DNA of 64,000 nt from an uncultured bacterium. Lineage in GTDB: Bacteria; Patescibacteriota; JACMRA01. How positions within the stretch are numbered: the stretch's first letter is position 1; each line of letters opens with the position of its first letter. The stretch spans positions 32,001-96,000 of the forward strand of contig CAWAQU010000003.1 of NCBI GenBank assembly GCA_963784355.1, in the 5' to 3' direction. The position numbers and the translations under genes were made by a program. Under the pieces are notes generated by a model. It had not been told where the DNA came from, searched no databases, and was given only the letters and a program-made list of their open reading frames with translations. Shown one piece after another: positions 2,425-20,371 of the stretch.

Positions 2425-3795
2425 TTAACATCTTGAACCTACCCACCAGCCAGAATTCCAAGTTCTGTATAATATTGCTCCATTTCCACAAACGGAATCA
2501 TTAGCGGAAATAAACGCGGCTAGTACACCAGAATAAGCCGAAACTAACCAGCCAAAAGGCCCAAATGCAGATGCTCCAATTGAAACTAAAGTAAACCCAA
2601 GAGATACTTTAACAGCACCACAATGATCAAGTATTGTTTTAATTCCCCACCAATAAGTTTCATTTATGGTGTAAGCGTTACAAATTATAGCCTCAGTTTT
2701 AACTCCAGTAACCAAACCATCAACTAAAGCCGCTTTGCTATTAGTTGCACTAGCAATATTTCTACCCTCTACTTTTAAAAGATTACTTAGATTATTCTTT
2801 TCTGCAATAGATAGTTTATTAAACTCACCAATAGCTAACTTAACTGTTTTTTCATCGTCTTTATCTAGCTTCAATTTATTTAACTTATCTTGAGATAAAA
2901 CTATATTTCCAGTACTTTCATCAATAATTCTAATTGATTCTACATTGGTGATTACATTTTGAGATAATGGCTTTTGACTTTGTAATTCTTTAAGTTTAGC
3001 CTGCTCTTCTTTAGATAATTTTGATATTAACTCTTCAGCTACTTCTTTTGTAGCTTGCTCTTTGGATTTCTTTTCTTTAGTTACTTTATCATTAATCTTA
3101 TCATCAAATTGTTTTTGCTGAGTTTTTAACTCCTGAGTAGTTGTATATTGAATATCAACTATAGCTTTATTAAAGTCTTTACTAATTTGAGTTTTAATAG
3201 ATTCAAGTGTTTTGAGACTACCTTGCAATGATAAAGAACTAATTTTTATACTATTTGAGCCGTTATTCAATAACTTCTCCAGTAAATTCTTTTTCTTAAC
3301 ATCTTTCTTAGCTTCTTGGAGTTTAGTATTATCTGTGTTTTTCAGTACAGGTTTGATTTGTTTAGCTTTGTCTGTATTTTTGTTGTTATTTAAATTTTCT
3401 AAAGCTAACAACTGGTTGTAAAAATTATCACTGCAATAATCTGTTATTTCAGATATTACTTTAGGTGTTTCCGAATCACAAGCTAGGTTTAGCGTTTCAC
3501 CCTTAATAATACCATTAACTGCAATGATGAGTCCACTTATTGCATAATCAGTTGTAACAGGTAATTTACTAGCTAAATAACCATAACTAGCATATCCTTC
3601 TACTGTACTATTTGAATTTGTTTTACCATTAACAGTTAAATATGCTTCAGGGCTGTTAATAGCTGACAAAGTATCTGCTTGAGTTTGAACTGAAAACAAA
3701 CTTGATACTGGGGCTGTCAGGGTTGTAAAAGCAAGGAAAACCGCTGTAACTGCTGTTGCGAGCTGGAGTGGTTTGAAAGTTTTGGGTATGAACAT
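2425..3795 (-). CDS. Secreted precursor protein with variable C-terminal bacteriocin-like peptide, copy 1 (456 aa)
   Basis: Start reassigned to MFIPKTFK (3795) from paralog alignment and conserved upstream DNA; Sec-like signal peptide ending VQTQA; C-terminal 87 aa hydrophobic with 4 Cys and YWWG. Confidence 0.75.
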   Translation of the reverse strand: MFIPKTFKPLQLATAVTAVFLAFTTLTAPVSSLFSVQTQADTLSAINSPEAYLTVNGKTNSNSTVEGYASYGYLASKLPVTTDYAISGLIIAVNGIIKGETLNLACDSETPKVISEITDYCSDNFYNQLLALENLNNNKNTDKAKQIKPVLKNTDNTKLQEAKKDVKKKNLLEKLLNNGSNSIKISSLSLQGSLKTLESIKTQISKDFNKAIVDIQYTTTQELKTQQKQFDDKINDKVTKEKKSKEQATKEVAEELISKLSKEEQAKLKELQSQKPLSQNVITNVESIRIIDESTGNIVLSQDKLNKLKLDKDDEKTVKLAIGEFNKLSIAEKNNLSNLLKVEGRNIASATNSKAALVDGLVTGVKTEAIICNAYTINETYWWGIKTILDHCGAVKVSLGFTLVSIGASAFGPFGWLVSAYSGVLAAFISANDSVCGNGAILYRTWNSGWWVGSRC

Positions 3796-3906
3796 ATGTA
3801 TAAAACAAATATATTTTTTAAAAGCTAAGAATCTGTACAGAAATTCAAGCTGATTGTGCCTATTTGTTATAAATCCTCTTGTCAAGATACTTAAAAGTAT
3901 CATTTT
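3796..3906 (-). promoter_or_regulatory. Conserved promoter/operator region of precursor copy 1
   Basis: TTGACA at 3880-3885 (minus); dyad GATAC-N6-GTATC at 3886-3901; dyad centred on TCTGTACAGA at 3823-3851; highly similar to 16263..16372. Confidence 0.65.
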
Positions 3907-3963
3907 GGGTAAAATGTGCATGAAAGACCTTTAAAATTGTGTATGTTACTCATACTAGCTTTT

Positions 3964-4251
3964 TTATAGGAAGTTGGATAAAATATTAAAAATGAAAGAA
4001 AATCTACCGGAAGTCTTTGACTCTAAAAATCTATCTCTATAAATTTCAAATTCAGGATATTTTTCCGAAAACTCATTTAATATAGCCAACTGCTCCTCGT
4101 CTGTAAGATTTTGAACTTGATCTTTAATAAAGTCTTTACCATTTTCTGCACTATCACTTTCTTTAATACCTTTTATACTCTTAATTATAGCAATTAAATA
4201 TTGCTGCTGCTCTTCAGTTAAGTTAGGTAAATTGTCTATTGATATGCTCAT
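3964..4251 (-). CDS. 95-aa hypothetical protein, paralog of 20084..20371
   Basis: Same length and about three-quarters identical (by eye) to 20084..20371. Confidence 0.8.
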   Translation of the reverse strand: MSISIDNLPNLTEEQQQYLIAIIKSIKGIKESDSAENGKDFIKDQVQNLTDEEQLAILNEFSEKYPEFEIYRDRFLESKTSGRFSFIFNILSNFL

Positions 4252-4496: not shown

Positions 4497-5536
4497 TAAC
4501 CCAAATCACGAAAATAAATTAATCCAACAAATTCAATCAATCTTAAAACAATCTTAGAACAACCATCTTTACTTCAAACTTAAATTTGAACTCTTAGACT
4601 CCTATACTTTTACTTCAAACTTTACTAAATTAAGACAACAAAAAAGGGTGCAAGTACATGACTACAAACACCCAAAATCAATCTACGGAAATTTTACAAA
4701 TCAGACAAGTACATAATTTCTTTCTTCAGTTTTATCAGGAAAAGAAGTGGAAAAACAAAGGTAGGCCATTAACTTTAAAACCTCCGGATATAGCTACAAT
4801 TACCCTAATCCAAAAACATTACCAGATTAAAACTCTTAAATCACTTCACAATTTACTGAAAGAAAAATATACAGATATATTTCCAAAACTTCCGGCATAT
4901 CAAAACTTTGTAATCATAATGAATAAAAGTAGTACTTTTCTCCTAAGCATATTGCTTTTAGTTTTACAAGCAGGTAAGCCTTATCTTACTAAGGTCAAAT
5001 TCATTGACTCAACTCCTGTACCGGTCTGTAAAGTATATAGAAGTAAAGGGCATAAAACAATGAAACTATTAGCCAGTAAGAAAAAGAGTACTACAGGCTG
5101 GTTCTATGGATTAAAACTACATCTAATTTGTGATGAGAATTATCATTTAGCGTGTTTTAAATTCACAACAGGATCAGTTGATGATAGAATAGTTTTAAAT
5201 GAGTTTATGGAAAAAATTAGGTTTACAAATTCAACTTTAGTAGCAGATGCAGGATATGTATCAAAGCAGTATGAAAGTAAGTTTTGGAATTCAGGAACAT
5301 ATTTTCTAACAGCAACAAAAGCTAATATGAAAGTATTGGCTAGTATATACCAACAAAAGCTAATGAATATGAGATCAAAGATAGAGACAGTATTTTCAAT
5401 ATTAAAAGATAAGTATCAGTTGATTACTTCAGTACCAAGATCAATAAACGGGTATTTAGCTCATTACGTTAGAAGTTTGTTTGGGTATGTATTTTGTGGA
5501 ATAGAGGGGTTTTTGGTAATTTCGTGATTTGGGTTA
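4497..5536 (+). mobile_element. IS982-family insertion sequence
   Basis: Perfect 17-bp terminal inverted repeats TAACCCAAATCACGAAA (4497-4513 / 5520-5536) containing the ACCC end typical of IS982; about 1.04 kb; single transposase. Confidence 0.9.
4658..5527 (+). CDS. IS982-family DDE transposase
   Basis: Motifs IDSTPVPVC, GWFYGLKLHLI, ADAGY, RSKIETVFSILK. Confidence 0.92.
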   Translation: MTTNTQNQSTEILQIRQVHNFFLQFYQEKKWKNKGRPLTLKPPDIATITLIQKHYQIKTLKSLHNLLKEKYTDIFPKLPAYQNFVIIMNKSSTFLLSILLLVLQAGKPYLTKVKFIDSTPVPVCKVYRSKGHKTMKLLASKKKSTTGWFYGLKLHLICDENYHLACFKFTTGSVDDRIVLNEFMEKIRFTNSTLVADAGYVSKQYESKFWNSGTYFLTATKANMKVLASIYQQKLMNMRSKIETVFSILKDKYQLITSVPRSINGYLAHYVRSLFGYVFCGIEGFLVIS

Positions 5537-7073: not shown

Positions 7074-10000
7074 CTATTTTGGATAGTAAGTGCTTTCTCT
7101 ATCATTTATGATTACTTTAAGCTGATCAATACTGTTCGGTTTGTTAATGATTAAAGATCCATTATGACCATCATAAGCTTGTTTTTTGCATTCATAGGGT
7201 ATGATAACAAATTTGTAACACGTGTCAATTTTTTCTTTTTGCCAGTTATTATGTAAATCAAAATCTTTTATATCAAGAACTAGGTCTATGTCACCTAGTA
7301 TTGCTTTCTCCCTATTCATTCTTTGCCAGCTTTGCACCACCCAGCCATGTTCGCTCCCTGTATCATATAAACTCCCAAAGTCCATTCTGAAAGATTCTGA
7401 AGCTGATTTAGCGTATTCTTGATTTCCAGCTAAGCTCCTTTTACCTACAAAGGCCCTACTAAAATCAGAATATTCTTTAAAATCTTTCCTTTTCTGATCT
7501 GGATTTAAATATACGTTATATTTTCCTGCCACCTCAGCTGGCGGGTCAAGAGCTATTAAATCAGGTTTTTTACCAAATCTCTCAGCCATTTCCCCACTCA
7601 AGATAGACCCTAAAGAATGCCCGACAACCTTTAGATTATCTCCATCACTCAACCCCCATTCTCTTAGTTTTTCCACTGTTTTATCTGCCACAGGACCAAT
7701 CCAAGTAGCAGCCCTTGCCACCCCAGTTGGACAATTTGTACCAAATATACATTGACCTTTATCATTGTTTGAAGCTTCAGACCAGTCAAGTAATAGCACA
7801 ATATCATCCGGATATTCAGCTTTAATATTTCTACCTATTTTTTCAAATTCTCCCACAGGCTCATCATCCCATCCATGGGTAACAACCCAGACTTTTTTAC
7901 CCTGCTCATAACCAAAATTATACATATTTCTATCTTCATCATCCAAAAACTTAAGTTTGATACGTCTTTGATTTCTATCTACTATATCTCCCTCACGGCC
8001 TATATTACTATCTCCGTTTTTTAATACCCCGCCTGTATCACTTCTATCTCCTTTCACTGTAAAAGTACGCTCCACGCCCTCCCCATATTCAGGCAATCTA
8101 CTCAAATCTTTATCTAGCCTAATTCTGTTGCTGGATTTCTCATTTTTCCAATAAGTACTTCTATCAGGCAACTTACAACTACCTCCAAAACACTCAGTTT
8201 CATGGAAAATTTTTGAATCAAACCAAATCTCATCTTGCATAGTTACTTTGTCACCTCTATTATTTGGATCGCTGGACCATCTCGTCTCTACATCGAAACT
8301 GAATCTACCACTAGAGTTTGTATTTTCTTGCTCAGAAGTTATATTTTCGTCAAATAGCTGTATAGTATTTTTCCTACCAATCCATTTACTGCTTTGCAAT
8401 TTCTCATATTTTTCCTCAACAATTTTATCCTTATCAAATAATCTTATTTTAATTTCTTGATCTTTAGCGGGAGCTACTGCAAAAACTCTATATTTTGCTG
8501 AACTTTCTCCTGTGATTTCAGAAACTTTAACTACTTTGGTAATTTTAGGAGCCGGGAAATCAATTCCCCTAAAAGTACCGCCTGATCCGAGCCAATTTTT
8601 ATCAAAGTCAACAGTAATAACATCTGCACCCTTATTATCATAAAACCAATTTTCCAAATCCTCTTGACCACCTTCTCCAGCTTTAACACAAAATTTTTGG
8701 AACTGTTCTGGAGTCAAATTATCTTTTTCCTTTCCTAGATAAGTAGTAGGGTTTACGGCACGATTTTTCTTTCTAATTTCAAAATGCAAGTGGGCTCCTG
8801 TAGAATTACCGGTGTTCCCTACCCGACCAATAATAGTGTTTGTATCTACAACATCGCCAGGTTTTACTAAAGGATTTTTTTCATGCTGTAAATGCACATA
8901 CAAGCTGGTAATATTATTTCCATGATCAATTAAAACGTAATTTGCTGTGTCTATAAGTCTACCCGTGTCATCGTACTGCCCTTTGTCAGATTCGGTAAAA
9001 CCAAAAACAGTTTTCAAAACTACTCCGGCCGCGGCAGGATAAACAGGTTCACCTGGCAAAACTCCGTTATAGTCTACTCCTGTATGGTATTTTGTTTTAT
9101 TAAAATACTGTTGGCTGTATCCATATGGAAAACCAACGTAAGCGTCTTCACTGTGCAGCGGTTTTTTATAAACCCCGTCGTTACCTCCATATCCACATTT
9201 GGGACATTCTTTTGTAGTAATTTTCTTTACTGATTCATCAGAAATATTTCCGGCCCTATCTATAAGTTTCACTGTAATAACATACTCAGTTTTACCACAT
9301 TGTAGTTGGCCAACTAAATCAGTATTTTCATATATCCCTTGATTATTTAAAGTTACATTTAGATTAGATACTCCGCCTTTGGAATTAGTTATAGCTATAT
9401 CAGCCTTAACATCTTTCTCGCCTTTAATCTGTAGGCTAATAAATTGTGCTAAAATATCTCCAGTAGTGTCCAAATCAAGCGTGGGCTTTCTGGGAGCAAC
9501 AGTATCTCTTTCTAATCTAGTCTCCAGCCAACTTCCTGCATTCCCGGCTGTATCTACTGCTCTCATTTTGACCAAATAATTGCCGTCCTGACAGATCCCA
9601 AGTCTACGGGTATCTATAATTCTGGTACAATTACTCACTTCATCGTCGCGCCTTTGTAAACCTAAATTTAAAACAGCATTACCATATCCGTCAGCACCAT
9701 TTCTAAAAACAGTTTGCCTCATTCTATCATTTTCTTGTCTAATAATTTCATACTCCATATCAGCCTGTCTTTCACCTTCATGATCCAGTTTTATTTGTAT
9801 ATCTCGAGTGATTCCTTTTTGTGGGTAATCAATGATCGGACCGAAATTTACCGAAGTAATATTTTTCATCAGGTGATTTTTTGGTGCGTCGGCATCGTGG
9901 TAAATTGTCAAAGATTTATTAAAATCGCTTGTATTCCCGGCCAAATCAATTACCTGTCCTTGAAGGACATACCAGTTCTGAGGAATTCCTAGTGGAGACA

Positions 10001-13000
10001 AACCATTATCCGCAAATTTAAACTCATAATTCCAACGGCAGTTTCTGTTAAACTTTACAGTCAGCCCTCCTAGTATTTTATCCTGCCCGTTTTGTCTGCT
10101 ACAGCCCTGGGGGCCAATTTCAATGATCGGTAGTTTTATTTGAGTTTGATTTTTTTGCACTAAATACAATTGCAATCTTTGATTCCTCTCTCCATACCCA
10201 CCCAAAGTGATATAATCTTTTCGTATTACAAATGTATCTACAAGCCTATCTTTTTCCGGAAATTCACCATCAGCCTCTATTCCATTTTTATTATCGCCCC
10301 AATTGTCCAAATTAAACTCAGAAACATCCGGCCTGGTGTTATCAATAAATAACCTGAAATCAAGACTATCTTCTCTAGCTTTTGAACTATAATTTAAAAC
10401 TCCTACAGGATAAATTACTACAGGGGCTCCATCCAATAAAGTTCTATTTTTATCATTAGTAAATATTGTGCTATTACCCGCTAAATCGCTACACTGTATA
10501 AGTGGTTGATAAATCCCTTCACTTTTACGCTCAACATTTATAGACTCTTGAAAAATTTTGGAATCAGTGGAAATTAGAGTTTGAATAAAACTATCTTCTT
10601 TAATCAAATCACAATAATCCATGTATTCTTTAGCTACTAATTTGAAGTCAACTCGATCACCCGTAAATACCCAAGGATTTATACCTTTGTCCGGTACAGA
10701 AGTTTTTACAGACTCCAAACCTAAATTTGTTTTATCGTATACTACCTGTAGTGGTTCGAGAGATTTAGTTGAAGCTTTATCCGACAGGCTAGCCTCTAAA
10801 TCCAAATTATACAGATTTTCAACATCAGGTAAATTAAGTTCTACTTGCCAGATGCCCGTTACAGGTACGATAATCTCAGTAAATAATTTACTACCTGAAT
10901 ATATTTTTAATTTAGCCTCAGGATCAGCCACCCCTGTAAGTCTGATTCTAGTAGAATTTGTATAAAATTTATTTTGAAACTCTTTCATTTCGTAATATTT
11001 ACCCTCACCACTCTTTTTCTCTTGTCTAAGAACCCTGGGGGCTGAGGTAATTCTACCATCCAAAACAAATCCTGCACTTTTTTGATTTATGCTCTCACCT
11101 TTGTAACCTGAAGCCATAACTTCATATTGTCCGCCGCTAAAGAAAAATGGTATGGGATAGTTTTTAATCCAGACACATTCAGTTTGATTGCAATTATTTG
11201 GTTCCAAATCTTTTGGTTTTTTAGGACTATGATCTTTTTTCACTCTAGCATCATTTAATGGATTGAATTTTATATCGTCTTCAACCTGATTATTTATAAC
11301 AGCAATCCGGCCAGTAGGATCAAAAACATCCGTATAGCCCGTACGTTTATCGGTGCCTGGCAATTCCGGCAGATTAGTGTAATCAGCATATTCCAACTTA
11401 AGAGCTTCAGTATTTTGCGATACGGTTGATTTTAGTTGTAGACTACGAATTTGACTGAGGCTAATTTTACCACTCAAAAAATCATCAATTTCCTGCTTAC
11501 TATTTAGGCCCTGAAAAGTAGGAGTAATATTGAAATTTTTTATGCTTTCGGTAGTATCCAAAATAATTTTAATTTCATCAGATTTGGGTGTCTGATTACC
11601 ATAAGCATCTTTAGCTATAGCAGAAATGAAGTAAATTTGATTTGTTACTGAGCTACTAGGCAACACAACAACAGTACTGAAAAAACCGTTTTCATCAACA
11701 TCAGCCGTTTTTACCAAATCACAACTAACTGTATTAGGGCTTAATACTATATCAATGCAAATATCTACAATGGTTTTTCCTCGCAAATAACCACCATAAC
11801 CTGAATTTGGAGTATTCACCGGTGCTTGCCCTTGTATATTAATTACTCCACGTGTGGTAACATAATTATTTCTAGGAGAAGTGATTACAACTTTATCTAA
11901 TAGTTTTGTGTAAGCACTAAAGGTCTGATCCGGCACTTTCACCCGCACTCCATCCGTAGTTTCAACCTCTAAGTCGTAGTCGTAATTTCCATCACTAATC
12001 CAATTATTGTTCCCGTCTTTACCATCAAATTCAATCATAGGTGGAAGAGCGTTTCCTGTAAATTCCCGGACCACTTTATTGGTTGATTTATTGCTGATTT
12101 TCAGATTGTATTTCTGAATTTGAGCTATATCAGCCGGGTTGTTCGGATTTACTAAGTTGGTAGCAAAAAATATTCCATCTTGTCTTCCGTCGCCATTTGG
12201 AGATATATTAGTTAAATCAGGGTTAATACTTAAATTAATGGAATACAAATCTACATTTAAAATAATCTCACTTTCCAAAGCATTGGAAGCAGGATCAATT
12301 AATTTAACAAGGTTCCTATTTATAGCCTTTTTAGGTGAATTATTAGGGTTTATTGTACTACTAGTGTAATTAGTCTTTTGCAGTAAGTTAATTTTGAATT
12401 TACAAACAGATACCGGGCTAGTTTCCGGATTTTGATCGATATCTAATAAATCGTCGCAAATTACCGACAGTTTTTCAGACTCTGTAGTGAATGTTCTTAG
12501 ACTAACATTTTTATCATTCAAATCAAATTCGTTCGGTAAAGTATTATTTGCCTCAGGTTCTAATTTAAACACAATTTTCCTACCCAATAGGTCATTGCTG
12601 ATTTCAACTGTAGAGCCTTTCTCACCTGCTCCTTCAAAACCATTTAAACTATGATTTACAATAGCTTGATTTATTGGAGATTTATTTTGTAGATAGGTGT
12701 GAGTATCAATTACAAATTCGTTATCTAAATTTTGTATTTTATCAGCCACAGGTTGATTTTCAGGGTTACATTTAAACTCCGGTAAAATCGCAGTGTATTG
12801 TTGGTCGTTTTTGTTGCAAACAGCATTCCCGGCTTTATCTTTAATTTTCAGATAAACTTTGTACTTACCGTCAGGCTGCAGATTATTTAGTTGTATCTGG
12901 CAGTTTACTAAATTCTGAGTACCACCAGCTTGCACACAATTTAAATCATCAGCCAACTTCGGATTGCCATTTGTTAGATTGTTTCCGTCATTATATAAGG

Positions 13001-16000
13001 GTATTTCCTTCCAAGTTTGCCCATCTAAATTTTGCAACAGGGAAACATGATAGCCTTTTGGATTTGTTCCTAAGTGAAAACCTGAAGTTTGAGACAAATC
13101 ACCAATCAGATCGGGATCTTGAATTTGAAACTGGATTTTCGGATTTTTATTATTATCTGCATTTTTTAATAGACCACTTGGTTCAATTTTCAAAATTTCC
13201 GGATTGATTTGCTCAAAATTTATTTTTAACTCAGTTTCAGGATTTGCAACAGGGTTACCTATTTTATCAATTTTATTACCTGTTCCATCGGTAGTTCTAA
13301 ATTTAAAAACATTTTGCCCGAACTCAAGTACTTTTGAAATATTAAAATTTTTGTATTCATCCACTTTTTCAGTAATATCTTGCCAAATTTCGAGTAAATT
13401 TCCGCTTACATCCGATTTAGCTATTTCCAATTTAGCTCCCTCTTCGATCACAAAATCTTTATCTTGTTTATCAGGCTGATTAAACCCTGCTACAGCTCCC
13501 TGAATATTCTGATCAGGATTATTGACCCAGGAATTGTTTTTTGGCTCCACAATAGCAATGTTGGCCCCTGTATCGTCTAAAACTAGATTGAGATTGGCTT
13601 GGGATTGAGTGGTGTCATTTGTTTGCCCTGCTTTGTCGTAAACTACAATTTGTAAATTATATGCACCATCAATCGCAAAATTGCCATCATCTCTTTTTCC
13701 GTCCCATACAAAAGAAATATTTCCTGTTGTAGAGTTGGCTGGAGCAAAGTTTGGATCACTGAAATCGCAGTTTTGTAATTGTTTTTCGTTAATATTACAA
13801 ATGGTAACAGTTTTGATAATGTTGTTTTGACTATCCTTGATTTTCAACTCACTTCGGGCAAAGTTTTTTTCGCTATATTCGAAATTTACATTTATTTTAT
13901 CTTTTATACCACTACTGGTAGTATTGCCCGGTGAGAATCTCTGCAAATCCAGCTTGGAGTCGGTAATTACAGGTAAAGTTGCATCTTGGGTAGAACTCAC
14001 TACTTTGGACCATGCTGAAATGTTGCCGTAATTGGGGGAATTATTCAGGCTTCGATCTCTGGCTTTTGCTCTATAATAGTAAGTTTGCGCATCCTCAAGC
14101 CCCGGAATTTCAAAAGAAACAGGCTGTGATACACCGTTAATTATACTTCCGTTTGTTTGGAATATACCTAATTTTTTGCTGTTATCTTGGAAACTTGAAT
14201 CCTGAGACACTTCTAAAAAATAGACAATATTGTCCGGTGAAGCTATATTATCACTAGAATTTTTATTCAATTTAAGCTCAATTTGATTCCCGGGTGAAAA
14301 TTCAGGCAAATTCGGCACATCCGGAATTTCCGGCGGAGTAGTATCAACTTTGATAAATTTAGAAGGAGTGGAATTTGCATTACTTTCAGTATTGTATTCA
14401 TCTCGTAAAACCGGACGCCAGTAATAACTTCCATCACCCACAACACGCCCAAAATCAGCCTGATTATAGTAGTATCCTGGTTGCCACAAATAGGGGTTGT
14501 TCAAATCCCACCAATTTTGGTTATTCTGAGATAATTGGATTTTTGCAGTAGCTTTGTTATTAATGTCATTATTTTGATGATCTCCATCTTGAATATTTCC
14601 TACCCTAAAATTCACTTGCATGTTTCCACCACATTGCCCACTAGCTGGATTGACAGATTGATCGCAATTTCCTATTAAATCAGAGTTATTATCAGGCGTA
14701 ATAGGTTGTGCCGGAGCCGGGGGGAAATTGGATTCATATTCTAAAACAGGTGGAGTACTAAAACCATTACAGGGTGCCAAATCAGTATTTTTCTGACAAA
14801 AGACTACACCTTTATACTCATCTTCGTTGTAAGATTTCAAGCCCAAAACCACTTTATTTGTGCCCAGTTGGGTATTTACTAAATCTTTAATATCACTACT
14901 TTCTCGCACAGATATTTGAGCGTTGCTATTGTATTGAGGAAAATTTAAATTGCCGTAACTTGAACCTAAACTAGGTTGATTTGCCCAGCTAGTACTATTT
15001 TCAGAAAAATTATCTCCATTTACTCTAAAAATACCTGCACTAAAAGGACCACTGGTAGTACCGTAATGACTTACCTTTAACTTTGCCGAGATTACAGGAA
15101 CTTCCGGACCTGCAAATTTTAGAAAAGTTCGGCTGTCCATATACCACGGCTGTCCAGGAACTGTCACTTCATGATAATTTCCAACTACTCTAGGTTTTTT
15201 GAAATATTGTGGCGTGGTAGCCGTTGAACTCACAAAAGTATCTTCAGTTGGTGTTTTTACCTCAATTCCAGGATCAATCACAATCGGAAATGTTCTATCT
15301 TTGGAATATAAAAACTCTTGATTTGGCATGATACTCAAACTTTTACTAGTCTGATCAAACTCTATCTTTTCCTCTTTGCTATCAAGCTTTCCATCAAAAA
15401 TGACTGCCTGATTTAACTTTATTTCTTGAGCAAGATTATTGAATTTAAGGTTATTTTGTTTTGAAAAATCCAATTGCTTGTTTGTAGTTATTTCAAATAC
15501 CAACTTACTCAAATCATTATTTAAAGCTTGGAAGTTATTCAAAATTAATTCTTTGACAAACCCTTCAGACTGAACAGTAAATTTTAAATCAATATCAGGC
15601 AAAACTTGCTTATAAACAATGCTATTTTTGGTAATTATGGGAGGTTGTTGGCTTATCAATTGCTGTTTACCCACAAAAATTTTAGAAATATTGTACTCTA
15701 AATCTTGAGTTTTGAAACTTACCCCATTTTCTAGATTATTACTGAAGTAAACTTTAAAGTCATTGGCTTTGTTTTCAAAATCCCAGTTTTTTTGACTACT
15801 TGGCACAATGGAATTATCAACCTCCAACCAATTAGTATTTGATTTGAAGTGAACTTTGTCAGCAAAAGACTGAGTTTTATATCTGTAACCAAGAGGCTTG
15901 CCGGTATCTACAATTTTAAAAATTTTAGTAGTAGAAGTCCGCAACTCCAAAATTTCTTCCTGTACCCCTTCCAAAGATTTTTGATTGGCAAATACTGGTA

Positions 16001-16097
16001 AATTTGGTAGAAAGATTTGACCTAAGAGCAAAACTGATATCAAACTTAATAGTACCGATTTTAATATATTCTCGGTGCTCTTTTTTAAAGCAAACAT
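7074..16097 (-). CDS. Giant (~3000 aa) secreted multidomain protein: DNRLRE-like and Ig/FN3/FlgD-like repeats, M23 peptidase, C-terminal lipase-like alpha/beta hydrolase
   Basis: Signal peptide; recurring D.AGN, DTT.P and WDG...DG.Y Ig-like motifs; M23 motifs HTGVD and GNSTGAHLHFEIR; lipase-like THGW, VVGHSLG, ALDP; probable start MFALKK at 16097. Confidence 0.85.
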   Translation of the reverse strand: MFALKKSTENILKSVLLSLISVLLLGQIFLPNLPVFANQKSLEGVQEEILELRTSTTKIFKIVDTGKPLGYRYKTQSFADKVHFKSNTNWLEVDNSIVPSSQKNWDFENKANDFKVYFSNNLENGVSFKTQDLEYNISKIFVGKQQLISQQPPIITKNSIVYKQVLPDIDLKFTVQSEGFVKELILNNFQALNNDLSKLVFEITTNKQLDFSKQNNLKFNNLAQEIKLNQAVIFDGKLDSKEEKIEFDQTSKSLSIMPNQEFLYSKDRTFPIVIDPGIEVKTPTEDTFVSSTATTPQYFKKPRVVGNYHEVTVPGQPWYMDSRTFLKFAGPEVPVISAKLKVSHYGTTSGPFSAGIFRVNGDNFSENSTSWANQPSLGSSYGNLNFPQYNSNAQISVRESSDIKDLVNTQLGTNKVVLGLKSYNEDEYKGVVFCQKNTDLAPCNGFSTPPVLEYESNFPPAPAQPITPDNNSDLIGNCDQSVNPASGQCGGNMQVNFRVGNIQDGDHQNNDINNKATAKIQLSQNNQNWWDLNNPYLWQPGYYYNQADFGRVVGDGSYYWRPVLRDEYNTESNANSTPSKFIKVDTTPPEIPDVPNLPEFSPGNQIELKLNKNSSDNIASPDNIVYFLEVSQDSSFQDNSKKLGIFQTNGSIINGVSQPVSFEIPGLEDAQTYYYRAKARDRSLNNSPNYGNISAWSKVVSSTQDATLPVITDSKLDLQRFSPGNTTSSGIKDKINVNFEYSEKNFARSELKIKDSQNNIIKTVTICNINEKQLQNCDFSDPNFAPANSTTGNISFVWDGKRDDGNFAIDGAYNLQIVVYDKAGQTNDTTQSQANLNLVLDDTGANIAIVEPKNNSWVNNPDQNIQGAVAGFNQPDKQDKDFVIEEGAKLEIAKSDVSGNLLEIWQDITEKVDEYKNFNISKVLEFGQNVFKFRTTDGTGNKIDKIGNPVANPETELKINFEQINPEILKIEPSGLLKNADNNKNPKIQFQIQDPDLIGDLSQTSGFHLGTNPKGYHVSLLQNLDGQTWKEIPLYNDGNNLTNGNPKLADDLNCVQAGGTQNLVNCQIQLNNLQPDGKYKVYLKIKDKAGNAVCNKNDQQYTAILPEFKCNPENQPVADKIQNLDNEFVIDTHTYLQNKSPINQAIVNHSLNGFEGAGEKGSTVEISNDLLGRKIVFKLEPEANNTLPNEFDLNDKNVSLRTFTTESEKLSVICDDLLDIDQNPETSPVSVCKFKINLLQKTNYTSSTINPNNSPKKAINRNLVKLIDPASNALESEIILNVDLYSINLSINPDLTNISPNGDGRQDGIFFATNLVNPNNPADIAQIQKYNLKISNKSTNKVVREFTGNALPPMIEFDGKDGNNNWISDGNYDYDLEVETTDGVRVKVPDQTFSAYTKLLDKVVITSPRNNYVTTRGVINIQGQAPVNTPNSGYGGYLRGKTIVDICIDIVLSPNTVSCDLVKTADVDENGFFSTVVVLPSSSVTNQIYFISAIAKDAYGNQTPKSDEIKIILDTTESIKNFNITPTFQGLNSKQEIDDFLSGKISLSQIRSLQLKSTVSQNTEALKLEYADYTNLPELPGTDKRTGYTDVFDPTGRIAVINNQVEDDIKFNPLNDARVKKDHSPKKPKDLEPNNCNQTECVWIKNYPIPFFFSGGQYEVMASGYKGESINQKSAGFVLDGRITSAPRVLRQEKKSGEGKYYEMKEFQNKFYTNSTRIRLTGVADPEAKLKIYSGSKLFTEIIVPVTGIWQVELNLPDVENLYNLDLEASLSDKASTKSLEPLQVVYDKTNLGLESVKTSVPDKGINPWVFTGDRVDFKLVAKEYMDYCDLIKEDSFIQTLISTDSKIFQESINVERKSEGIYQPLIQCSDLAGNSTIFTNDKNRTLLDGAPVVIYPVGVLNYSSKAREDSLDFRLFIDNTRPDVSEFNLDNWGDNKNGIEADGEFPEKDRLVDTFVIRKDYITLGGYGERNQRLQLYLVQKNQTQIKLPIIEIGPQGCSRQNGQDKILGGLTVKFNRNCRWNYEFKFADNGLSPLGIPQNWYVLQGQVIDLAGNTSDFNKSLTIYHDADAPKNHLMKNITSVNFGPIIDYPQKGITRDIQIKLDHEGERQADMEYEIIRQENDRMRQTVFRNGADGYGNAVLNLGLQRRDDEVSNCTRIIDTRRLGICQDGNYLVKMRAVDTAGNAGSWLETRLERDTVAPRKPTLDLDTTGDILAQFISLQIKGEKDVKADIAITNSKGGVSNLNVTLNNQGIYENTDLVGQLQCGKTEYVITVKLIDRAGNISDESVKKITTKECPKCGYGGNDGVYKKPLHSEDAYVGFPYGYSQQYFNKTKYHTGVDYNGVLPGEPVYPAAAGVVLKTVFGFTESDKGQYDDTGRLIDTANYVLIDHGNNITSLYVHLQHEKNPLVKPGDVVDTNTIIGRVGNTGNSTGAHLHFEIRKKNRAVNPTTYLGKEKDNLTPEQFQKFCVKAGEGGQEDLENWFYDNKGADVITVDFDKNWLGSGGTFRGIDFPAPKITKVVKVSEITGESSAKYRVFAVAPAKDQEIKIRLFDKDKIVEEKYEKLQSSKWIGRKNTIQLFDENITSEQENTNSSGRFSFDVETRWSSDPNNRGDKVTMQDEIWFDSKIFHETECFGGSCKLPDRSTYWKNEKSSNRIRLDKDLSRLPEYGEGVERTFTVKGDRSDTGGVLKNGDSNIGREGDIVDRNQRRIKLKFLDDEDRNMYNFGYEQGKKVWVVTHGWDDEPVGEFEKIGRNIKAEYPDDIVLLLDWSEASNNDKGQCIFGTNCPTGVARAATWIGPVADKTVEKLREWGLSDGDNLKVVGHSLGSILSGEMAERFGKKPDLIALDPPAEVAGKYNVYLNPDQKRKDFKEYSDFSRAFVGKRSLAGNQEYAKSASESFRMDFGSLYDTGSEHGWVVQSWQRMNREKAILGDIDLVLDIKDFDLHNNWQKEKIDTCYKFVIIPYECKKQAYDGHNGSLIINKPNSIDQLKVIINDRESTYYPK

Positions 16098-16262
16098 AAA
16101 CTGTAACAAAAAATTAATTGTACATATTAAGCACAAAAAAACATTCTTTGCAACACCCTAAGTGTAGCATTGTATAAATAAAATAGATTTTTTGAAGTGT
16201 AAAATAAAATTCACAAATTCAAACACCCATATTTTTAAAGCCTGCTCACACACATTTCACTT

Positions 16263-16372
16263 AAAATGATACATATATATGTCTTGACAAGAGATTATAT
16301 AATAAATAGGCACAGTTAGCTCGAATTTCTGTACAGATTCTTAGCTTTTTATAATATATTTGTTTTATACAT
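16263..16372 (+). promoter_or_regulatory. Conserved promoter/operator region of precursor copy 2
   Basis: TTGACA 16284-16289; GATACATATATATGTC abutting it; dyad AGCTCGAATTTCTGTACAGATTCTTAGCT 16318-16346. Confidence 0.65.
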
Positions 16373-17746
16373 ATGTTCACACTCAAACCTCTCAAGCTCG
16401 CAACAGCGGTCACCGCATTTTTTCTTGCTTTTTCCACCCTTGCGGCTCCAGTATCAAGTTTGTTCTCAGTTCAAACTCAAGCAGATACTTTATCAGCTAT
16501 TAACAGCCCTGAAGCATATTTAACTGTTAATGGTAAAACAAATTCAAATGGTACAGTGGAAGGTTATGCTAGCTATGGTTACTTAACTAGTAAATTACCC
16601 ATTAGTACTGATTATGCAGTAAGTGGATTATCAATTGCAGTAAATGGTATTATTAAAGGTGAGACGCTTAACCTAGCTTGTGATTTAGAAACACCTAAAG
16701 TAATATCTGAAGTAACAGATTATTGTAGTGATAATTTTTACAATCAATTATTGGCTTTAGAAAATTTGAATAATAACAAAGGCTTAGATAAAGCTAAACA
16801 AATCAAACCTGTACTGAAGAATACAGATAGCAACAAACTCCAAGAATCCAAAAAAGATGTTAAGAAAAAGAATTTATTAGAGAAGCTACTCTCAAACAAC
16901 AGCTCTTCAAACAGTGTAAAAATCAGCTCTTTGTCACTTCAAGGAAGTATTAAAATACTTGAAACAATTAAAACACAAATTAGTAAAGATTTTAATAAGG
17001 CTACAGTAGAAATACAATATACTACTACTCAAGAGTTAAAGATTCAACAAAAACTTATTGAAGATAAAATTAATGATAAGGTTACTAAAGAAAAGAAATC
17101 TAAGGAGCAAGCTACAGTAGAAGTTTTAGACCAGTACTTAAAACAATTTTCAGCAAATCAGCAAAATGGTAACTTAGGTAATATTTCTAAAAAAACAGTA
17201 GAAAAGGTAGAATCTATTAAAACTATTGATGAGAACACAGGTAATGTTGTTTTATCTCAAGATAAGCTAAACAAGCTGAAATTAGCTAAAGTTGAAGAAA
17301 ATTCTGTAAAACAAGCTATTACTGAATTTAATAAGTTATCAATAGCGCAAAAAAGTAATTTAAATAATGTTTTAAATGAAGAGGGTAAGAATATTACTAG
17401 TGGAGTTAATAACAAAACAGCTTTAGTAAGTGGTTTGGTTGGTGGGGTTAAGGCTGAAGCAGGCTGGTGTAGTAGTTATGTACCTTTGTATTGGTATTGG
17501 TGGGGCGTAGATGCTCATATTACACAATGTAATATTGATACGTTTAATTGGGTTGGTGGTGGATATGCTACCATTATGGGTGCATTAGCCGCAACACCAT
17601 GTGGATGGTTTTGTGGTACACTAGCCATTATAATGGGTTTGGAATTAGGATATATTAACTGGTTAAATAGTAGATGTGGTGGAAATGGAGTTATGCTACA
17701 CTATGTATATAGAGGCCCTGTTTATTGGTTCTGGACTGTTTGTTAA
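16373..17746 (+). CDS. Secreted precursor protein with variable C-terminal bacteriocin-like peptide, copy 2 (457 aa)
   Basis: N-terminal ~360 aa highly similar to 2425..3795; after GVKAEA a divergent 94-aa Trp/Gly-rich peptide with 6 Cys. Confidence 0.8.
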   Translation: MFTLKPLKLATAVTAFFLAFSTLAAPVSSLFSVQTQADTLSAINSPEAYLTVNGKTNSNGTVEGYASYGYLTSKLPISTDYAVSGLSIAVNGIIKGETLNLACDLETPKVISEVTDYCSDNFYNQLLALENLNNNKGLDKAKQIKPVLKNTDSNKLQESKKDVKKKNLLEKLLSNNSSSNSVKISSLSLQGSIKILETIKTQISKDFNKATVEIQYTTTQELKIQQKLIEDKINDKVTKEKKSKEQATVEVLDQYLKQFSANQQNGNLGNISKKTVEKVESIKTIDENTGNVVLSQDKLNKLKLAKVEENSVKQAITEFNKLSIAQKSNLNNVLNEEGKNITSGVNNKTALVSGLVGGVKAEAGWCSSYVPLYWYWWGVDAHITQCNIDTFNWVGGGYATIMGALAATPCGWFCGTLAIIMGLELGYINWLNSRCGGNGVMLHYVYRGPVYWFWTVC

Positions 17747-17773: not shown

Positions 17774-17974
17774 ATGTCTGAATTTTTTCTTTATTTCTTT
17801 ACTGATGGCATGCCATTTACTATGATAATAGCTATAAATGTCTTAATCACAATTCCGTTGCTACCTAGATTTAAAAATGATAAAGACAAACAGATACAAA
17901 TCTACAGATTAGGTTTACCTATGTTAACCTTTTTGTATGTAGTTTACTTCGGAGTAAAGGCTTTTACAAAATAA
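17774..17974 (+). CDS. 66-aa two-TM membrane protein, putative cognate immunity protein of copy 2
   Basis: Directly downstream of the precursor and before the terminator; two hydrophobic helices and a charged loop. Confidence 0.75.
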   Translation: MSEFFLYFFTDGMPFTMIIAINVLITIPLLPRFKNDKDKQIQIYRLGLPMLTFLYVVYFGVKAFTK

Positions 17975-18008
17975 AGAGTAGGTAAAGTATAACCTTGCAT
18001 AGATATTG

Positions 18009-18041
18009 AGGTGGGTTTAACACGTTTAAGCCCACTTTTTT
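18009..18041. terminator. Intrinsic terminator of the precursor/immunity operon copy 2
   Basis: AGGTGGGTTTAACACGTTTAAGCCCACTTTTTT hairpin plus T-run; near-identical to the reverse complement of 1746..1779. Confidence 0.8.
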
Positions 18042-18060: not shown

Positions 18061-19272
18061 CTAAATTTTTTTTGCTTCAGATAAAATTAGTACATGTGAC
18101 AAATCTCTTTCTAAAGCAACATTAATTATTTGTAAGTCCGATTTATCAAAATCAGAAACAACCTCCTCCAAATGGGTCATTTCATGCTTCCAAATATTAA
18201 TTTCTTGCCCTTTTGTTAATGATACTCTCTTTTCTTTGTTAAATACTTTGAAATGAATAGTATAATCTTTATCTAATTTCAAATTAAGCATTCTATTATT
18301 TGTGTTGTTATCAAATTTTGAAATTAATTCGCAATTTTTTATATCAATACCCAATAATTCTGGTATCCAAGTATTTTGACTATCTGCCTTTGGATTTTTT
18401 ACATAGCTAAAATCAACTCGATTTGATAATGAATCTAAAGTATTACTAATCATCAGTAAATCATATCGATCCATGCCTTGTCGAAAATTTTTGAGTACTT
18501 TGAGCTTATCTTCATGCATTCCGATCATACTACCCAAGTACAGCACTATATTTATATTTTTGGATCCATCTAGCTCTTCTTTTAGTGGGGTAAATATACC
18601 GTCAAAATAGGTCTTTTCTACGTCACATTCATAGCTTATAAATTCTATTTCAGGAAACCATTCGTTTATATTCCTTTTGGATATTTCATTCATTTGATTA
18701 CTTACATCAACTGCAATATATCTTTTTACTACGATATTTTTAGTTAATTGTGTAAGCCACTTTTTAACAGGATGTGAATTGCCTTGTCCGATATCAATAA
18801 TATTGATACTTTCAACGTCTTTAAGTTTGTATTTAAGATAATCTAGAGTACTGTCTAATAAATTCATTACTCTTCTAGGTGTAGGATAATCCCCGTCTAT
18901 AGCATTTAAATTGTAGTAATTATCCCAAACTTCTGCACCATCGTCAACAAAGGTAAATTTGTTTGGAATTTCACATTTTAATTCAAGATGATTTATCATC
19001 TCCCATATTGCTTCATTGCTGAAAATATCGAAAAACTTTTGATCTGGATGAACATCAAAATGTAAATCACCTCTTCTATGTTTTCTACCTTCCTCGCGAA
19101 GCTTAGATAATTCTAAATCATTATGGATATTGTCTATAATATAAACTTTATTGTTCACCTTCTCAAGTTGTAAATTATTTTTTTTATCTATACTTTTTTG
19201 TATCCAAATTGCTACTGTTGCTTTAGAAACGTTATATTTTAGTGCTACATCAGTATTCTTAATTATGCTCAT
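18061..19272 (-). CDS. HTH-like + EgtD-like SAM methyltransferase, copy 2
   Basis: VALKYNVSKATVAIWI; IIDIGQGNS; YIAVDVS; LYLGSMIG; WIPELLGI shared with copy 1. Confidence 0.75.
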   Translation of the reverse strand: MSIIKNTDVALKYNVSKATVAIWIQKSIDKKNNLQLEKVNNKVYIIDNIHNDLELSKLREEGRKHRRGDLHFDVHPDQKFFDIFSNEAIWEMINHLELKCEIPNKFTFVDDGAEVWDNYYNLNAIDGDYPTPRRVMNLLDSTLDYLKYKLKDVESINIIDIGQGNSHPVKKWLTQLTKNIVVKRYIAVDVSNQMNEISKRNINEWFPEIEFISYECDVEKTYFDGIFTPLKEELDGSKNINIVLYLGSMIGMHEDKLKVLKNFRQGMDRYDLLMISNTLDSLSNRVDFSYVKNPKADSQNTWIPELLGIDIKNCELISKFDNNTNNRMLNLKLDKDYTIHFKVFNKEKRVSLTKGQEINIWKHEMTHLEEVVSDFDKSDLQIINVALERDLSHVLILSEAKKI

Positions 19273-19365: not shown

Positions 19366-19554
19366 ATGCCTATTAAAGGGTTAGGCGTAACTTTGCTCAA
19401 AAAAGCCGAAAGTAAAGCTAAAAAAACTAGTTCTTTGATGACTATGCTTAAAGAATTTGAGCTAATGTATAATTTGTCTCCAAAACTAACTGTAAAACAA
19501 ATCAACACACTAAAACTACACTTTAAGCAAATTGTCAAAGGTAGAAACAACTAA
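19366..19554 (+). CDS. Small basic hypothetical protein, paralog of 213..380
   Basis: EFELMYNLSPKLTVKQINTLK matches the motif in 213..380. Confidence 0.65.
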   Translation: MPIKGLGVTLLKKAESKAKKTSSLMTMLKEFELMYNLSPKLTVKQINTLKLHFKQIVKGRNN

Positions 19555-19578
19555 AACAAGTATCATATTTAGCAGCTT

Positions 19579-19734
19579 ATGTCAAAAAACTTTTATATCA
19601 TAAATGAAGGACTCGAGATAATCAAATCATTTAGATTAATCTACTGGGTTTTGATAATCGTTATTGCTGCTATTTTAGCCCTTTTGTTTTCCCCAGATGG
19701 ATATTTCAACATTTATAAACTATTTACTAATTAA
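19579..19734 (+). CDS. 51-aa single-TM protein (not in ORF track)
   Basis: Manual translation MSKNFYIINEGLEIIKSFRLIYWVLIIVIAAILALLFSPDGYFNIYKLFTN; paralog begins at 63 (minus). Confidence 0.65.
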   Translation: MSKNFYIINEGLEIIKSFRLIYWVLIIVIAAILALLFSPDGYFNIYKLFTN

Positions 19735-20083: not shown

Positions 20084-20371
20084 ATGAGCATAAATATAGA
20101 CAATTTACCTAATTTATCTAAAGACCAACAACAATATTTGATTGAAGTTATAGAGAGGACAAAGAATATTAAAAGAGATGCTGGCGAGGAGGAAAATAAA
20201 GACTTTATTAAAAATCAGGTTCAAAATCTAACAGATGAGGAGCAGTTAGTTATATTGAATAAGTTTTCGGAAAAATATCCTGAATTTGAAATATTTAGAG
20301 ACAGATTCTTGGAGTCAAAAACTTCCGGTAGAATTTCCTTTATACTTAACATATTATCCAGCTTTTTATAA
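20084..20371 (+). CDS. 95-aa hypothetical protein, paralog of 3964..4251
   Basis: Direct protein alignment by eye. Confidence 0.8.
   Translation: MSINIDNLPNLSKDQQQYLIEVIERTKNIKRDAGEEENKDFIKNQVQNLTDEEQLVILNKFSEKYPEFEIFRDRFLESKTSGRISFILNILSSFL

Follow-up and report, generated by a model that had tools for sequence, protein, structure and literature searches.

Pore-forming colicins are built round a ten-helix bundle of about 200 amino acids (aa) with a buried hydrophobic hairpin, and class II bacteriocins are peptides of 30-70 aa whose short leaders end in GG and are cut by a C39-peptidase ABC exporter. A further arrangement is that of the polymorphic toxin systems (Rhs, CdiA, LXG), for which Zhang, Aravind and co-workers described in 2012 swappable C-terminal toxins on conserved carriers (PMC3482391, in the passages available); within these passages Tox-WTIP is the only pore-forming C-terminal toxin domain listed, its occurrence being given as proteobacteria only. 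The ionophore toxins of contact-dependent growth inhibition (CDI), carried by CdiA of E. coli, were predicted to be five-helix bundles, which are delivered upon contact by CdiA/CdiB and use entry domains that hijack inner-membrane proteins (PMC11630599, in part). EsxX of S. aureus, a glycine-zipper toxin of the type VII secretion system (T7SS), was reported to depolarise the membrane from its extracellular side and to be neutralised by polytopic membrane proteins (PMC12744356, in part). Here, two related genes from an uncultured bacterium are compared with these systems. Both are located within a 64,000-nucleotide (nt) stretch of DNA (positions 32,001 to 96,000 of contig CAWAQU010000003.1, assembly GCA_963784355.1), in the following termed the window, and they encode the precursors A and B, whose C-terminal domains are referred to as tails.

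The precursors are best understood as polymorphic toxins of a bacteriocin-like kind, which would be secreted via Sec, bear a new C-terminal domain that acts on membranes and be accompanied by membrane immunity proteins encoded alongside, a reading in which toxicity and immunity would follow from the layout and to which a probability of roughly 0.65 is assigned. The proposed order of parts would be a Sec signal peptide, a lineage-specific carrier of about 320 aa, a G-V-x-A-x-A junction and a swappable domain of 85-100 aa. Secretion, toxicity, the membrane as target, the immunity function, the disulfides and both direction and mechanism of the recombination are what we infer; new in this case are the family to which the C-terminal domain belongs, the use of a plain Sec carrier, a junction of AxA type and the setting in a very small genome.

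Precursors divided at a fixed junction

The two precursor genes and their parts are as follows.

16373 to 17746, plus strand: precursor A, 457 aa, from the list of open reading frames (ORFs)
16222 to 16372, plus strand: upstream region of A (promoter and 5' leader), conserved in three cassettes, from the DNA alignment and the inverted-repeat arms I4/I6 against 3773 to 3947
16373 to 16483, plus strand: predicted Sec signal peptide of A, residues 1-37, read by eye
16484 to 17443, plus strand: Lys-rich N-part of A, putative carrier or delivery region, residues 38-357, 74-83% identical among the paralogs
17444 to 17461, plus strand: junction motif G-V-K-A-E-A of A, residues 358-363, from protein and DNA alignments
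17462 to 17746, plus strand: variable C-terminal domain of A, residues 364-457 (94 aa, 17462 to 17743), and the stop codon
2425 to 3795, minus strand: precursor B, 456 aa from MFIPK (P0003), from homology and a database protein
2689 to 2706, minus strand: junction GVKTEA of B
2428 to 2688, minus strand: tail of B, 87 aa with 4 Cys

The mechanical ORF of B extends to 3921, and its start at MFIPK was set by homology and by the 456-aa protein P0003. A third paralog, C (P0002, 466 aa), resides on contig 12 of the window's own genome, G000. Overall, A and B share 64% identity (BLASTP), which splits at the junction into 78% for the N-parts and 29% for the tails; for C and A the corresponding values are 83% and 35%, and among the three paralogs of G000 the N-parts are 74-83% and the tails 29-35% identical at the amino acid level. 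An earlier note on this DNA had described two precursors that are alike up to GVK(T/A)EA and diverge thereafter, and had called the junction sharp. Both statements hold: the same break recurs in paralog C and the DNA repeat ends there, and the junction is the boundary of a real module. The measurements likewise reproduce the common tail scaffold which that note had read from the sequence, i.e., C-x8-YWWG-x7-C, then a hydrophobic stretch rich in Gly and Ala that includes a P-x-GW turn, then CG(G)NG and finally a Cys at the very end, together with the even Cys counts (6 in tail A, which also contains 9 Trp, and 4 in tail B) and the Lys-rich region of about 325 aa before the tail, as the mature N-part was found to comprise 325 aa with 13.5% Lys.

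On the level of DNA, the A and B copies are inverted repeats (2690 to 3947 versus 16222 to 17460) of 76-87% identity. As these start about 150 nt 5' of the start codon, promoter and N-part constitute one homogenised block, and 16222 marks the start of the homogenised module; a promoter consensus scan yielded 11 sites versus 10.8 expected, which is no better than shuffles. At its other end, the repeat stops at 17460, within the codon of Ala363, and past this codon the alignment of A and B persists only at a Cys codon and at the YWWG codons. Judged by these alignments, GVKAEA represents the last conserved codons, forms an AxA (small-x-small) motif and is the recombination or module boundary, and the A/B junction lies far beyond chance.

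The same division is found when further proteins are compared. Between A and P0004 the N-parts are 44% and the tails 73% identical, between A and P0006 27% and 51%. Other pairs show the reverse: P0004 and P0010 share 91% in their N-parts and 37% in their tails, P0012 and P0021 share 93% within a 42-aa N-part and 30% in their tails, and in both pairs the break lies at GVE(A/V)(E/K)A. In the relative G014, two adjacent genes have ...EKVASWVGEFG in common and then split at SVNAKA, followed by AC, versus SVRASA, followed by GWC. A fixed junction joining a conserved N-part to alternative tails, a feature by which polymorphic toxins are recognised, is therefore present. Discrete tail types are thus conserved from one organism to another, whereas the N-parts follow the organism that bears them and are homogenised inside each genome; recombination at the fixed junction, or gene conversion halting there, would produce this pattern. 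The divergence behind the junction is thus real, as the earlier note had it, but instead of simple drift of a released peptide it constitutes the signature of a polymorphic toxin system. Conservation of the tail among orthologs, which the same note had named as speaking against a released peptide and for a membrane anchor, is literally found (73% for P0004); taken with the other evidence it favours discrete toxin types over an anchor.

In front of the junction, the signal region of A consists of a Lys-containing n-region, the hydrophobic stretch LATAVTAFFLAFSTLAAPV and the conserved FSVQTQA preceding D38, whereby F31 and A37 are invariant in 6/6 homologs. The exact cleavage point of the signal peptide, placed by reading the sequence, is to be taken as putative, and residues 1-32 were modelled with a predicted local distance difference test (pLDDT) value below 50 in the full-length AlphaFold2 model. 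The FSVQTQA that ends this region (16463 to 16483) recurs as tail junction FTVQ[TA]QA in P0049, P0064 and P0070 and may be a shared processing motif. AlphaFold2 predicts the N-part to be mixed alpha/beta with a long terminal helix (330-357). The full-length model of A (109 alignment rows) reached a pLDDT of 81.5 and a predicted template modelling score (pTM) of 0.78 and exhibits the same tail shape as the model of the tail alone. No family in Pfam or NCBIfam matched the N-part, the full-length model found no match in the PDB at E<=1e-3 (Foldseek) and a best Z of 5.1 against 48,161 chains (VIA-align), and the ESM Atlas returned nothing usable for an N-part query. Look-alikes of the whole precursor amount to only six proteins in an index of 5.8 billion.

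The C-terminal domain, its carriers and the genes behind it

A tail profile, built from six tails and searched against 1.84e9 cluster representatives, matched 106 proteins at E<=1e-3, of which 16 reached E<=1e-10. A 636-aa repeat protein with six short matched stretches, P0060, was dropped as spurious, and 109 sequences were aligned, which are in the following referred to as members. Nearly invariant are the columns C366, W376, W377, G378, C386 and G439. The domain ends at the last residue in 103/109 members and at most 8 residues from the end in the other 6, and between 0 and 405 aa (median 127) precede the first Cys. As about 64 of 103 family N-parts possess an amino acid composition of the GC-rich type, the family reaches well beyond the lineage of the window. 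An [YF]-N-x-[LQ]-P element was identified 24-60 residues before the first Cys in 27/103 members versus 0.2 expected from shuffles, and is degenerate in the window's proteins (FNKLS). A group of 17 members ends in W-x-W-H-Q and is devoid of the last Cys pair (e.g., P0046, P0065, P0100); many of these WHQ-ending members have a common N-part of about 100 aa with ...YE.AI..ME.HL....

Within the catalogues, no Pfam family matches the tail region: a scan of all 109 members at E<=0.01 gave none there, and neither did one of the six tails at E<=10. Scanning precursors, small ORFs and the six tails with Pfam and NCBIfam revealed nothing above noise, and the NCBIfam scan of the 109 members gave only the Rhs-associated core in 2 of them, plus sub-threshold matches. 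The tail model found no match among solved structures in the PDB at E<=1e-3 (Foldseek), and when compared with 48,161 chains (VIA-align) it matched generic helical hairpins only, with a best Z of 5.8, which does not prove the fold to be new. As mere leads, the nearest ESM Atlas clusters of the tail are unnamed small Bacillota proteins (0.92 and 0.90), and bacteriocin-annotated clusters follow at 0.88 (Bacteriocin_BacA in 13% of members) and 0.81. With P0001 as query against genome contigs no relative was found, and metagenome scans using the A-type tail alignment and P0006 gave no match. A description of a WWG/Cys-bounded toxin domain was not found in the literature including the available passages of PMC3482391, whose supplementary domain lists might hold one. 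The tail is an autonomous and widespread C-terminal domain family that is absent from Pfam and NCBIfam.

The tail was modelled with AlphaFold2 from a 42-row alignment (pLDDT 83.3), yielding strands at 23-26 and 29-34 (the WWG hairpin), helices at 36-56 and 62-85 and strands at 91-96 and 102-106. In tail A the elements hence follow each other as beta-hairpin with YWWG, hydrophobic helical hairpin, CGGNG, beta-hairpin and terminal Cys, while the junction is a coil of lower confidence, with a pLDDT of 66-72 at residues 351-370 of the full model and of 52-63 in the first 20 residues of the tail model. A 19-residue window with a Kyte-Doolittle mean of at least 1.6 is present in 97/109 tails. Averaged over the family, the tails contain 5.7% Trp, 5.2% Cys, 11.6% Gly and 12.6% Ala, and small-xxx-small motifs are slightly above expectation (9.9 per tail versus 8.1 in shuffles). 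Cys residues are gained and lost in pairs: C1 and C2 are both present in 107 members, both absent in 1 and discordant in 0, and C5 and C6 are both present in 89, both absent in 17 (the WHQ-ending subfamily) and discordant in 2, with 0, 2, 1 or 3 Cys lying between these pairs in 33, 63, 11 and 1 members, respectively. Such pairing fits three nearest-neighbour disulfides and hence an extracytoplasmic life of the domain, so that up to three such bonds are suggested for the tail, in A presumably C366-C386, C410-C414 and C435-C457. The proposal of a disulfide-stapled, membrane-inserting peptide in the earlier note is thereby retained in part: a compact domain round a hydrophobic helical hairpin is predicted and stapling is plausible, whereas the free peptide is to be reframed as a swappable module.

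The carriers on which the domain was found are of many kinds, with N-parts of 0-405 aa, and include Rhs proteins. In P0115, a YD repeat (E 4e-12) comes before an Rhs-associated core that is complete (E 2.6e-19, above the cut-off) and ends in DPxGL; a linker and, at the C-terminus, the tail domain follow. P0115 belongs to the same 90% cluster as P0081, which is itself a match of the tail profile. P0081, P0104 and P0116 begin with the end of an Rhs core, and in the latter two the core remnant directly precedes the first Cys. The same C-terminal domain is hence borne by unrelated scaffolds. In Rhs proteins the segment after the core is an encapsulated toxin (reviewed in PMC3482391), and to our knowledge only toxins are found as cargo at this position. 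The strongest single argument for the tail being a toxin rather than an anchor is therefore that the domain occupies the Rhs cargo position.

Behind the tails, small ORFs with hydrophobic segments are encoded, which in the window are as follows.

17774 to 17974, plus strand: 66-aa ORF with two hydrophobic segments, 27 nt past the stop of A
18008 to 18038, plus strand: terminator-like hairpin (13-bp stem, then a T-run), closing the operon of A and the 66-aa ORF
2221 to 2412, minus strand: 63-aa ORF with two transmembrane (TM) segments directly after B, candidate cognate immunity protein for tail type B
1976 to 2146, minus strand: 56-aa small hydrophobic ORF, candidate orphan or shared immunity gene
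1802 to 1969, minus strand: 55-aa ORF with two TM segments, third in the array behind B

The 66-aa ORF, by its position and hydrophobicity, is a candidate cognate immunity protein for tail type A; terminator-like sites as the one behind it number 2 versus 0.6 expected in shuffles. One small ORF follows A, three follow B and four follow C (80, 56, 78 and 66 aa), and 6/8 pass the 19-residue hydropathy cut-off with 1-3 segments, the 56-aa ORF of the C locus passing none. The first ORF after each tail (66 aa for A, 63 aa for B, 80 aa for C) is unique to that tail. A small gene which differs with the tail is thus placed right after each tail, and for these genes an immunity role is suggested. In the remaining array positions copies recur: the last (fourth) ORF behind C is 73% identical to the 66-aa ORF of A, and the 56-aa ORF of the B locus is 76% identical to the second small ORF behind C. 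The prediction of a complex of tail A with the 66-aa ORF ended with a score of 0.00 and without an answer being returned, which is neutral on binding.

Comparable layouts were identified in relatives. Genome G021 encodes two precursors, of 442 and 264 aa, with small TM ORFs behind each of them, G012 a 200-aa form followed by a 122-aa TM ORF and lying beside transposase remnants, and G016 a 398-aa form in the same layout. In G014 three tandem cassettes were found, each consisting of a truncated N-part with tail and a small TM ORF behind it. Together with the copy of the 66-aa ORF behind C and the 56-aa ORF common to B and C, this tandem array documents orphan cassettes, while the 3 tail-profile matches in G000 are all full genes and no orphan tail is among them. 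The order of the arrays fits a stepwise installation of tail and immunity pairs at the junction, by which older immunity genes would have been displaced downstream. The full-length profile has matches in 5/27 genomes of the order (64-93% complete), the tail profile in 3/401 sampled genomes of the phylum, all belonging to the window's family, and the N-part of A, used as query, matched only G000 among the 27 genomes of the order; this patchy distribution counts for the polymorphic toxin reading.

Proposed action and competing explanations

According to the preferred reading, the protein would be exported via Sec and act from outside, the target being a related cell nearby, into whose cytoplasmic membrane the helical hairpin would insert so as to dissipate the barrier. 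The producer itself would be shielded by the downstream proteins with 1-3 TM segments, which would meet the tail within the membrane, and different pairs of tail and immunity protein would confer strain-specific killing and self-protection. New pairs would be installed through recombination at the junction, with older immunity genes remaining as orphans. Several findings weigh against this model. The tail matches no known toxin family, solved structure or named homolog, for which reason the claim of toxicity rests on architecture and context. Only one or two Rhs lineages were seen to carry the tail domain (P0081/P0115 and P0104/P0116, the latter with weak core matches), and the match of P0081 to the tail profile is a moderate one (E 5.7e-5). 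Classic polymorphic toxin carriers bear several kinds of C-terminal domain, and homolog searches never found the present N-part with another kind. The maximal 19-residue hydropathy of the window genome's own tails is borderline (A 1.60, C 1.96, B 1.46), and, as far as the model goes, the two-helix hairpin could equally be a membrane anchor. Finally, a word-indexed search with the 66-aa ORF gave 2/2 matches in G000 and no homolog outside of it.

The last-mentioned function of the hairpin forms the core of a rival explanation, according to which it would stay in the producer's membrane and display the Lys-rich N-part, for instance as adhesin or host-attachment protein of an epibiont, with the small TM proteins being partners or assembly factors and the tail diversity reflecting relaxed constraint or co-evolution with these partners. 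Two hydrophobic helices of 21-24 residues, whose Cys-rich beta-hairpin flanks both lie on one side, would be in keeping with a re-entrant or hairpin anchor, as would the strictly C-terminal location of the domain and the fact that the N-part was not encountered with any other kind of C-terminal domain. In addition, NF058595 of NCBIfam ('lipo-invert putative C-terminal anchoring domain') matches 2/109 members weakly (E 0.004, below the cut-off), but it matches nothing in G000 at E<=10, and a basic cytoplasmic stop-transfer tail is missing, the protein ending at Cys. An anchor would further not be expected at the cargo position after an Rhs core, and it leaves unexplained why tails should remain 73% and 51% identical when the displayed part has diverged to 44% and 27%, why truncated N-parts with tail and TM ORF are arranged in tandem cassettes and why orphan copies of the small ORFs exist. 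We consider it improbable. Less probable still appears a non-lethal role in recognition or signalling (kin recognition, surface exchange), or a host-directed factor by which an epibiont would permeabilise its host for nutrient uptake. Polymorphism and paired genes are typical of recognition systems too, and a host-directed action would suit both the 3020-aa secreted M23/CBM96/Ig-like protein which the two loci flank, as such a protein would be fitting for an attack on another cell's envelope, and the small genome (1.14 Mb at 81% completeness) with a GyrA nearest to Peregrinibacteria/Gracilibacteria. Nothing specific speaks for either variant, and the presence of immunity-like genes in the producer argues that the producer itself is sensitive and the target kin-like.

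A third explanation overlaps with the preferred reading and concerns the fate of the tail. It assumes that the AxA junction is cut by signal peptidase I or by a dedicated protease, freeing a disulfide-stapled peptide of 9-10 kDa, and that the 320-aa N-part is a giant leader or chaperone which keeps the hydrophobic hairpin soluble until release. The resemblance of the junction to a signal-peptidase site, pointed out in the earlier note, was borne out for signal peptidase I, since the AxA motif follows a semi-hydrophobic stretch of about 10 residues: judged by eye, TALVSGLVGG-V-K-A-E-A, followed by G, has small residues in positions -1 and -3, Gly (-6/-7) as helix breaker near -6 and a preceding hydrophobic stretch, and together with the Lys in front of it (NNK-TALVSGLVGGV-KAEA) the region has an n-h-c-like appearance. 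A G[VI]x[AVTS]xA motif is located 0-4 residues before the first Cys in 19/109 members, all of low-GC type, and further low-GC members possess xAxA variants, e.g., TVQAQA and IKAQA. The recurrence of the FSVQTQA of the signal region as junction in P0049, P0064 and P0070 and the lower model confidence of the junction coil would also agree with processing, and a precedent for the involvement of a target's enzyme exists in colicin D, whose processing requires the target's signal peptidase LepB. On the other hand, about 80/109 members have Gly- or Pro-rich linkers without AxA, so that the domain cannot generally depend on AxA cleavage. Homologous recombination, too, needs a conserved junction, as in CdiA, where VENN is the conserved junction used in recombination; the 10-residue stretch forms part of the predicted long helix 330-357 and would be no membrane-embedded h-region, and the whole protein was modelled confidently as a single unit (pTM 0.78). 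From the sequence, a cut at the AxA junction is plausible, while the processed-peptide explanation is regarded as rather unlikely. 

In its most far-reaching form, GVxAxA and the preceding hydrophobic stretch would be an internal signal-peptidase-type cleavage cassette and ultra-small bacteria would make 'giant-leader' bacteriocins, in which the 320-aa region is a Sec-exported chaperone or targeting part, the signal peptidase of the housekeeping set or of the target cell frees a disulfide-stapled, membrane-inserting 9-10 kDa peptide of new fold, and tail, membrane immunity genes and a private helix-turn-helix (HTH)-methyltransferase-like gene are exchanged as a unit. This extended proposal is offered as speculative and is considered unlikely; if true, it would mean that polymorphic toxins can mature by a new route and that a new class of bacteriocins exists. 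Two other assignments were rejected. A ribosomally synthesised and post-translationally modified peptide or a double-glycine bacteriocin would come with a leader of the respective type and with maturation genes, neither of which is present, and a C-terminal sorting signal differs in length and ending from the tail, which has 85-100 aa, two helices, a terminal Cys and no basic tail.

On their far side, both cassettes of the window are bounded by a convergent gene.

18061 to 19272, minus strand: 403-aa protein with HTH and Methyltransf_33 (EgtD/EasF-like), A cassette, Pfam PF10017 at E 8e-14
487 to 1707, plus strand: 406-aa HTH and Methyltransf_33-like protein, B cassette

The EgtD and EasF models TIGR03438/03439 score far below their cut-off for the methyltransferase-like protein. 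As the copies of the A and B cassettes are only 31% identical, these genes belong to the variable part of the cassette. Such a gene is present at 3/3 G000 loci and at 2/2 loci of G021, and paralogs of the Methyltransf_33-like protein are numerous in general (8 in G000, 11 in G021 and 8 each in G020 and G023), occurring in 17/27 genomes of the order. The other five G000 copies (L098-L102; contigs 9, 10, 11, 12 and C3:166380) have unrelated contexts, and a role as cassette-private regulator is no more than our guess. At 3/5 of these other loci (L099, L101, L102) a divergent ORF of about 56-60 aa with ...EFEL.YNLSPKL... was noticed beside the methyltransferase-like gene, and at 2/5 (L099, L101) a small XRE-type HTH gene; the copy of the A locus adjoins both such an ORF and such an HTH gene, that of the B locus such an ORF.

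Between the cassettes, at 7074 to 16136 on the minus strand, the 3020-aa predicted secreted protein with CBM96, Ig-like domains and an M23 peptidoglycan peptidase is encoded, in which a GHSLGS lipase/esterase-type motif was seen by eye near the C-terminus; it may be an envelope-attacking factor. The 1.25-kb inverted repeats flank a 12.3-kb segment that comprises this giant gene, a DDE transposase (4658 to 5527) and other ORFs, and this segment could be inverted by homologous recombination. Two closely similar 95-aa ORFs (MSI.IDNLPNL...EKYPEFEI.RDRFLESKTSGR) are found at 3964 to 4251 (minus strand) and 20084 to 20371 (plus strand), on the outer margin of the B region and of the A region, respectively, and a 110-nt inverted repeat links 2 to 111 with 19531 to 19640; the duplicated region is thus larger than the toxin cassettes. 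Elsewhere in the window, 29530 to 32466 (minus strand) encodes an unusual 978-aa fusion, in which two GNAT acetyltransferase domains are joined to the core of a class II aminoacyl-tRNA synthetase and to an HGTP anticodon-binding domain. At a distance of 43 kb from the cassette, a secreted protease is encoded, namely a subtilase of 861 aa (Peptidase_S8, E 2e-57; 60351 to 62936, minus strand), by which pro-proteins could in principle be processed after export. The Rfam scan of the window revealed two tRNAs only.

The genome itself was recovered as 1.14 Mb in 13 contigs at 81% completeness. The closest named relatives of its GyrA are those of metagenome-assembled genomes of Candidatus Peregrinibacteria (49% identity) and Gracilibacteria (48%) versus Flavobacteriia (46%), values which are suggestive only, and the host is a small-genome bacterium, probably similar to those of the candidate phyla radiation.

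Comparison with known toxin systems

The layout points to a membrane-active antibacterial toxin having a fold without a solved relative, whose domain family lies outside Pfam and NCBIfam and comprises 106 cluster representatives on Sec-type carriers and Rhs proteins. A genome of about 1.1-1.4 Mb would thereby devote three loci and an array of small membrane-protein genes to strain-level warfare, which would be of relevance for competition among ultra-small, probably surface-attached bacteria. The three natural pairs of tail and small ORF, together with the orphan copies, offer a specificity panel for toxin-immunity recognition inside the membrane, and the conserved AxA junction suggests a simple idea for the maturation of a Sec-secreted polymorphic toxin.

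Some known classes share single traits with the locus. The hydrophobic helical hairpin, here the putative membrane-inserting element, is shared with colicins and with Sec-dependent or class II bacteriocins of Gram-positive bacteria, as is the presence, next door, of genes for small integral membrane proteins, here the candidates for immunity. Compared with colicin-type pore domains, the tail of 85-100 aa has no Pfam match and a best fold Z of 5.8, whereby distant kinship is possible. Membership in the class II bacteriocins was rejected on account of the Sec-type N-terminus, the pro-region of about 320 aa, the absence of a match to Bacteriocin_IIc or any other Pfam family and the absence of an ABC exporter from the cassette. 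Among the C-terminal anchoring and sorting signals considered (LPXTG, PEP-CTERM, GlyGly-CTERM, invert_tail), only invert_tail (NF058595) was matched, namely by 2/109 members at E 0.004 below the cut-off, and invert_tail matches nothing in G000.

The closest correspondence is that with the polymorphic toxin systems, with which, as far as the available passages of PMC3482391 describe them, the locus shares a conserved carrier with swappable tails at a short junction, immunity genes downstream, orphans and a domain that is also borne on Rhs proteins. Unlike in these systems, the carrier is a plain Sec-signal protein that belongs to no known family and lacks parts of Rhs, LXG or filamentous haemagglutinin type, and the window's loci have no genes for a dedicated secretion system nearby. 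The junction is GVxAxA instead of VENN or DPxGL, three loci are accommodated in a genome of about 1.1-1.4 Mb, and the carrier was never found with another type of toxin. Like Tox-WTIP, as it is portrayed in those passages, the tail domain is borne on Rhs and other carriers and would be non-enzymatic; helix 1 of Tox-WTIP is defined by RxxR and its helix 2 by Wx[ST]IP, whereas the tail has C-x8-10-WWG-x6-N-x-C, CGxxG, a terminal Cys, beta-hairpins and paired Cys. Membership in Tox-WTIP was discarded, given that no Pfam family matches over the tail of the 109 members and that conservation is confined to the columns of C, WWG, C, CG and C.

With the CDI ionophores, according to the parts of PMC11630599 used here, the locus shares polymorphic membrane-active tails of about 30% identity within a group, polymorphic immunity proteins and a discrimination of self from non-self. 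An assignment to them fails on the model with two helices and four strands, the GVKAEA junction and the lack of a haemagglutinin-type carrier. EsxX, in the parts of PMC12744356 at hand, resembles the tail in its Gly-rich hydrophobic C-terminal domain, its membrane immunity proteins and the occurrence of orphan immunity genes; it differs by its LXG domain, export via the T7SS, an extra pair of soluble cytoplasmic immunity proteins and the absence of a Cys/Trp scaffold. Small membrane proteins beside membrane-active toxins, with immunity genes left over, are by analogy a pattern known from CDI ionophores and EsxX. Seen from these comparisons, the precursors would function like polymorphic toxins with membrane-active tails, as exemplified by Tox-WTIP, the CDI ionophores and EsxX, while being a member of none of these groups.

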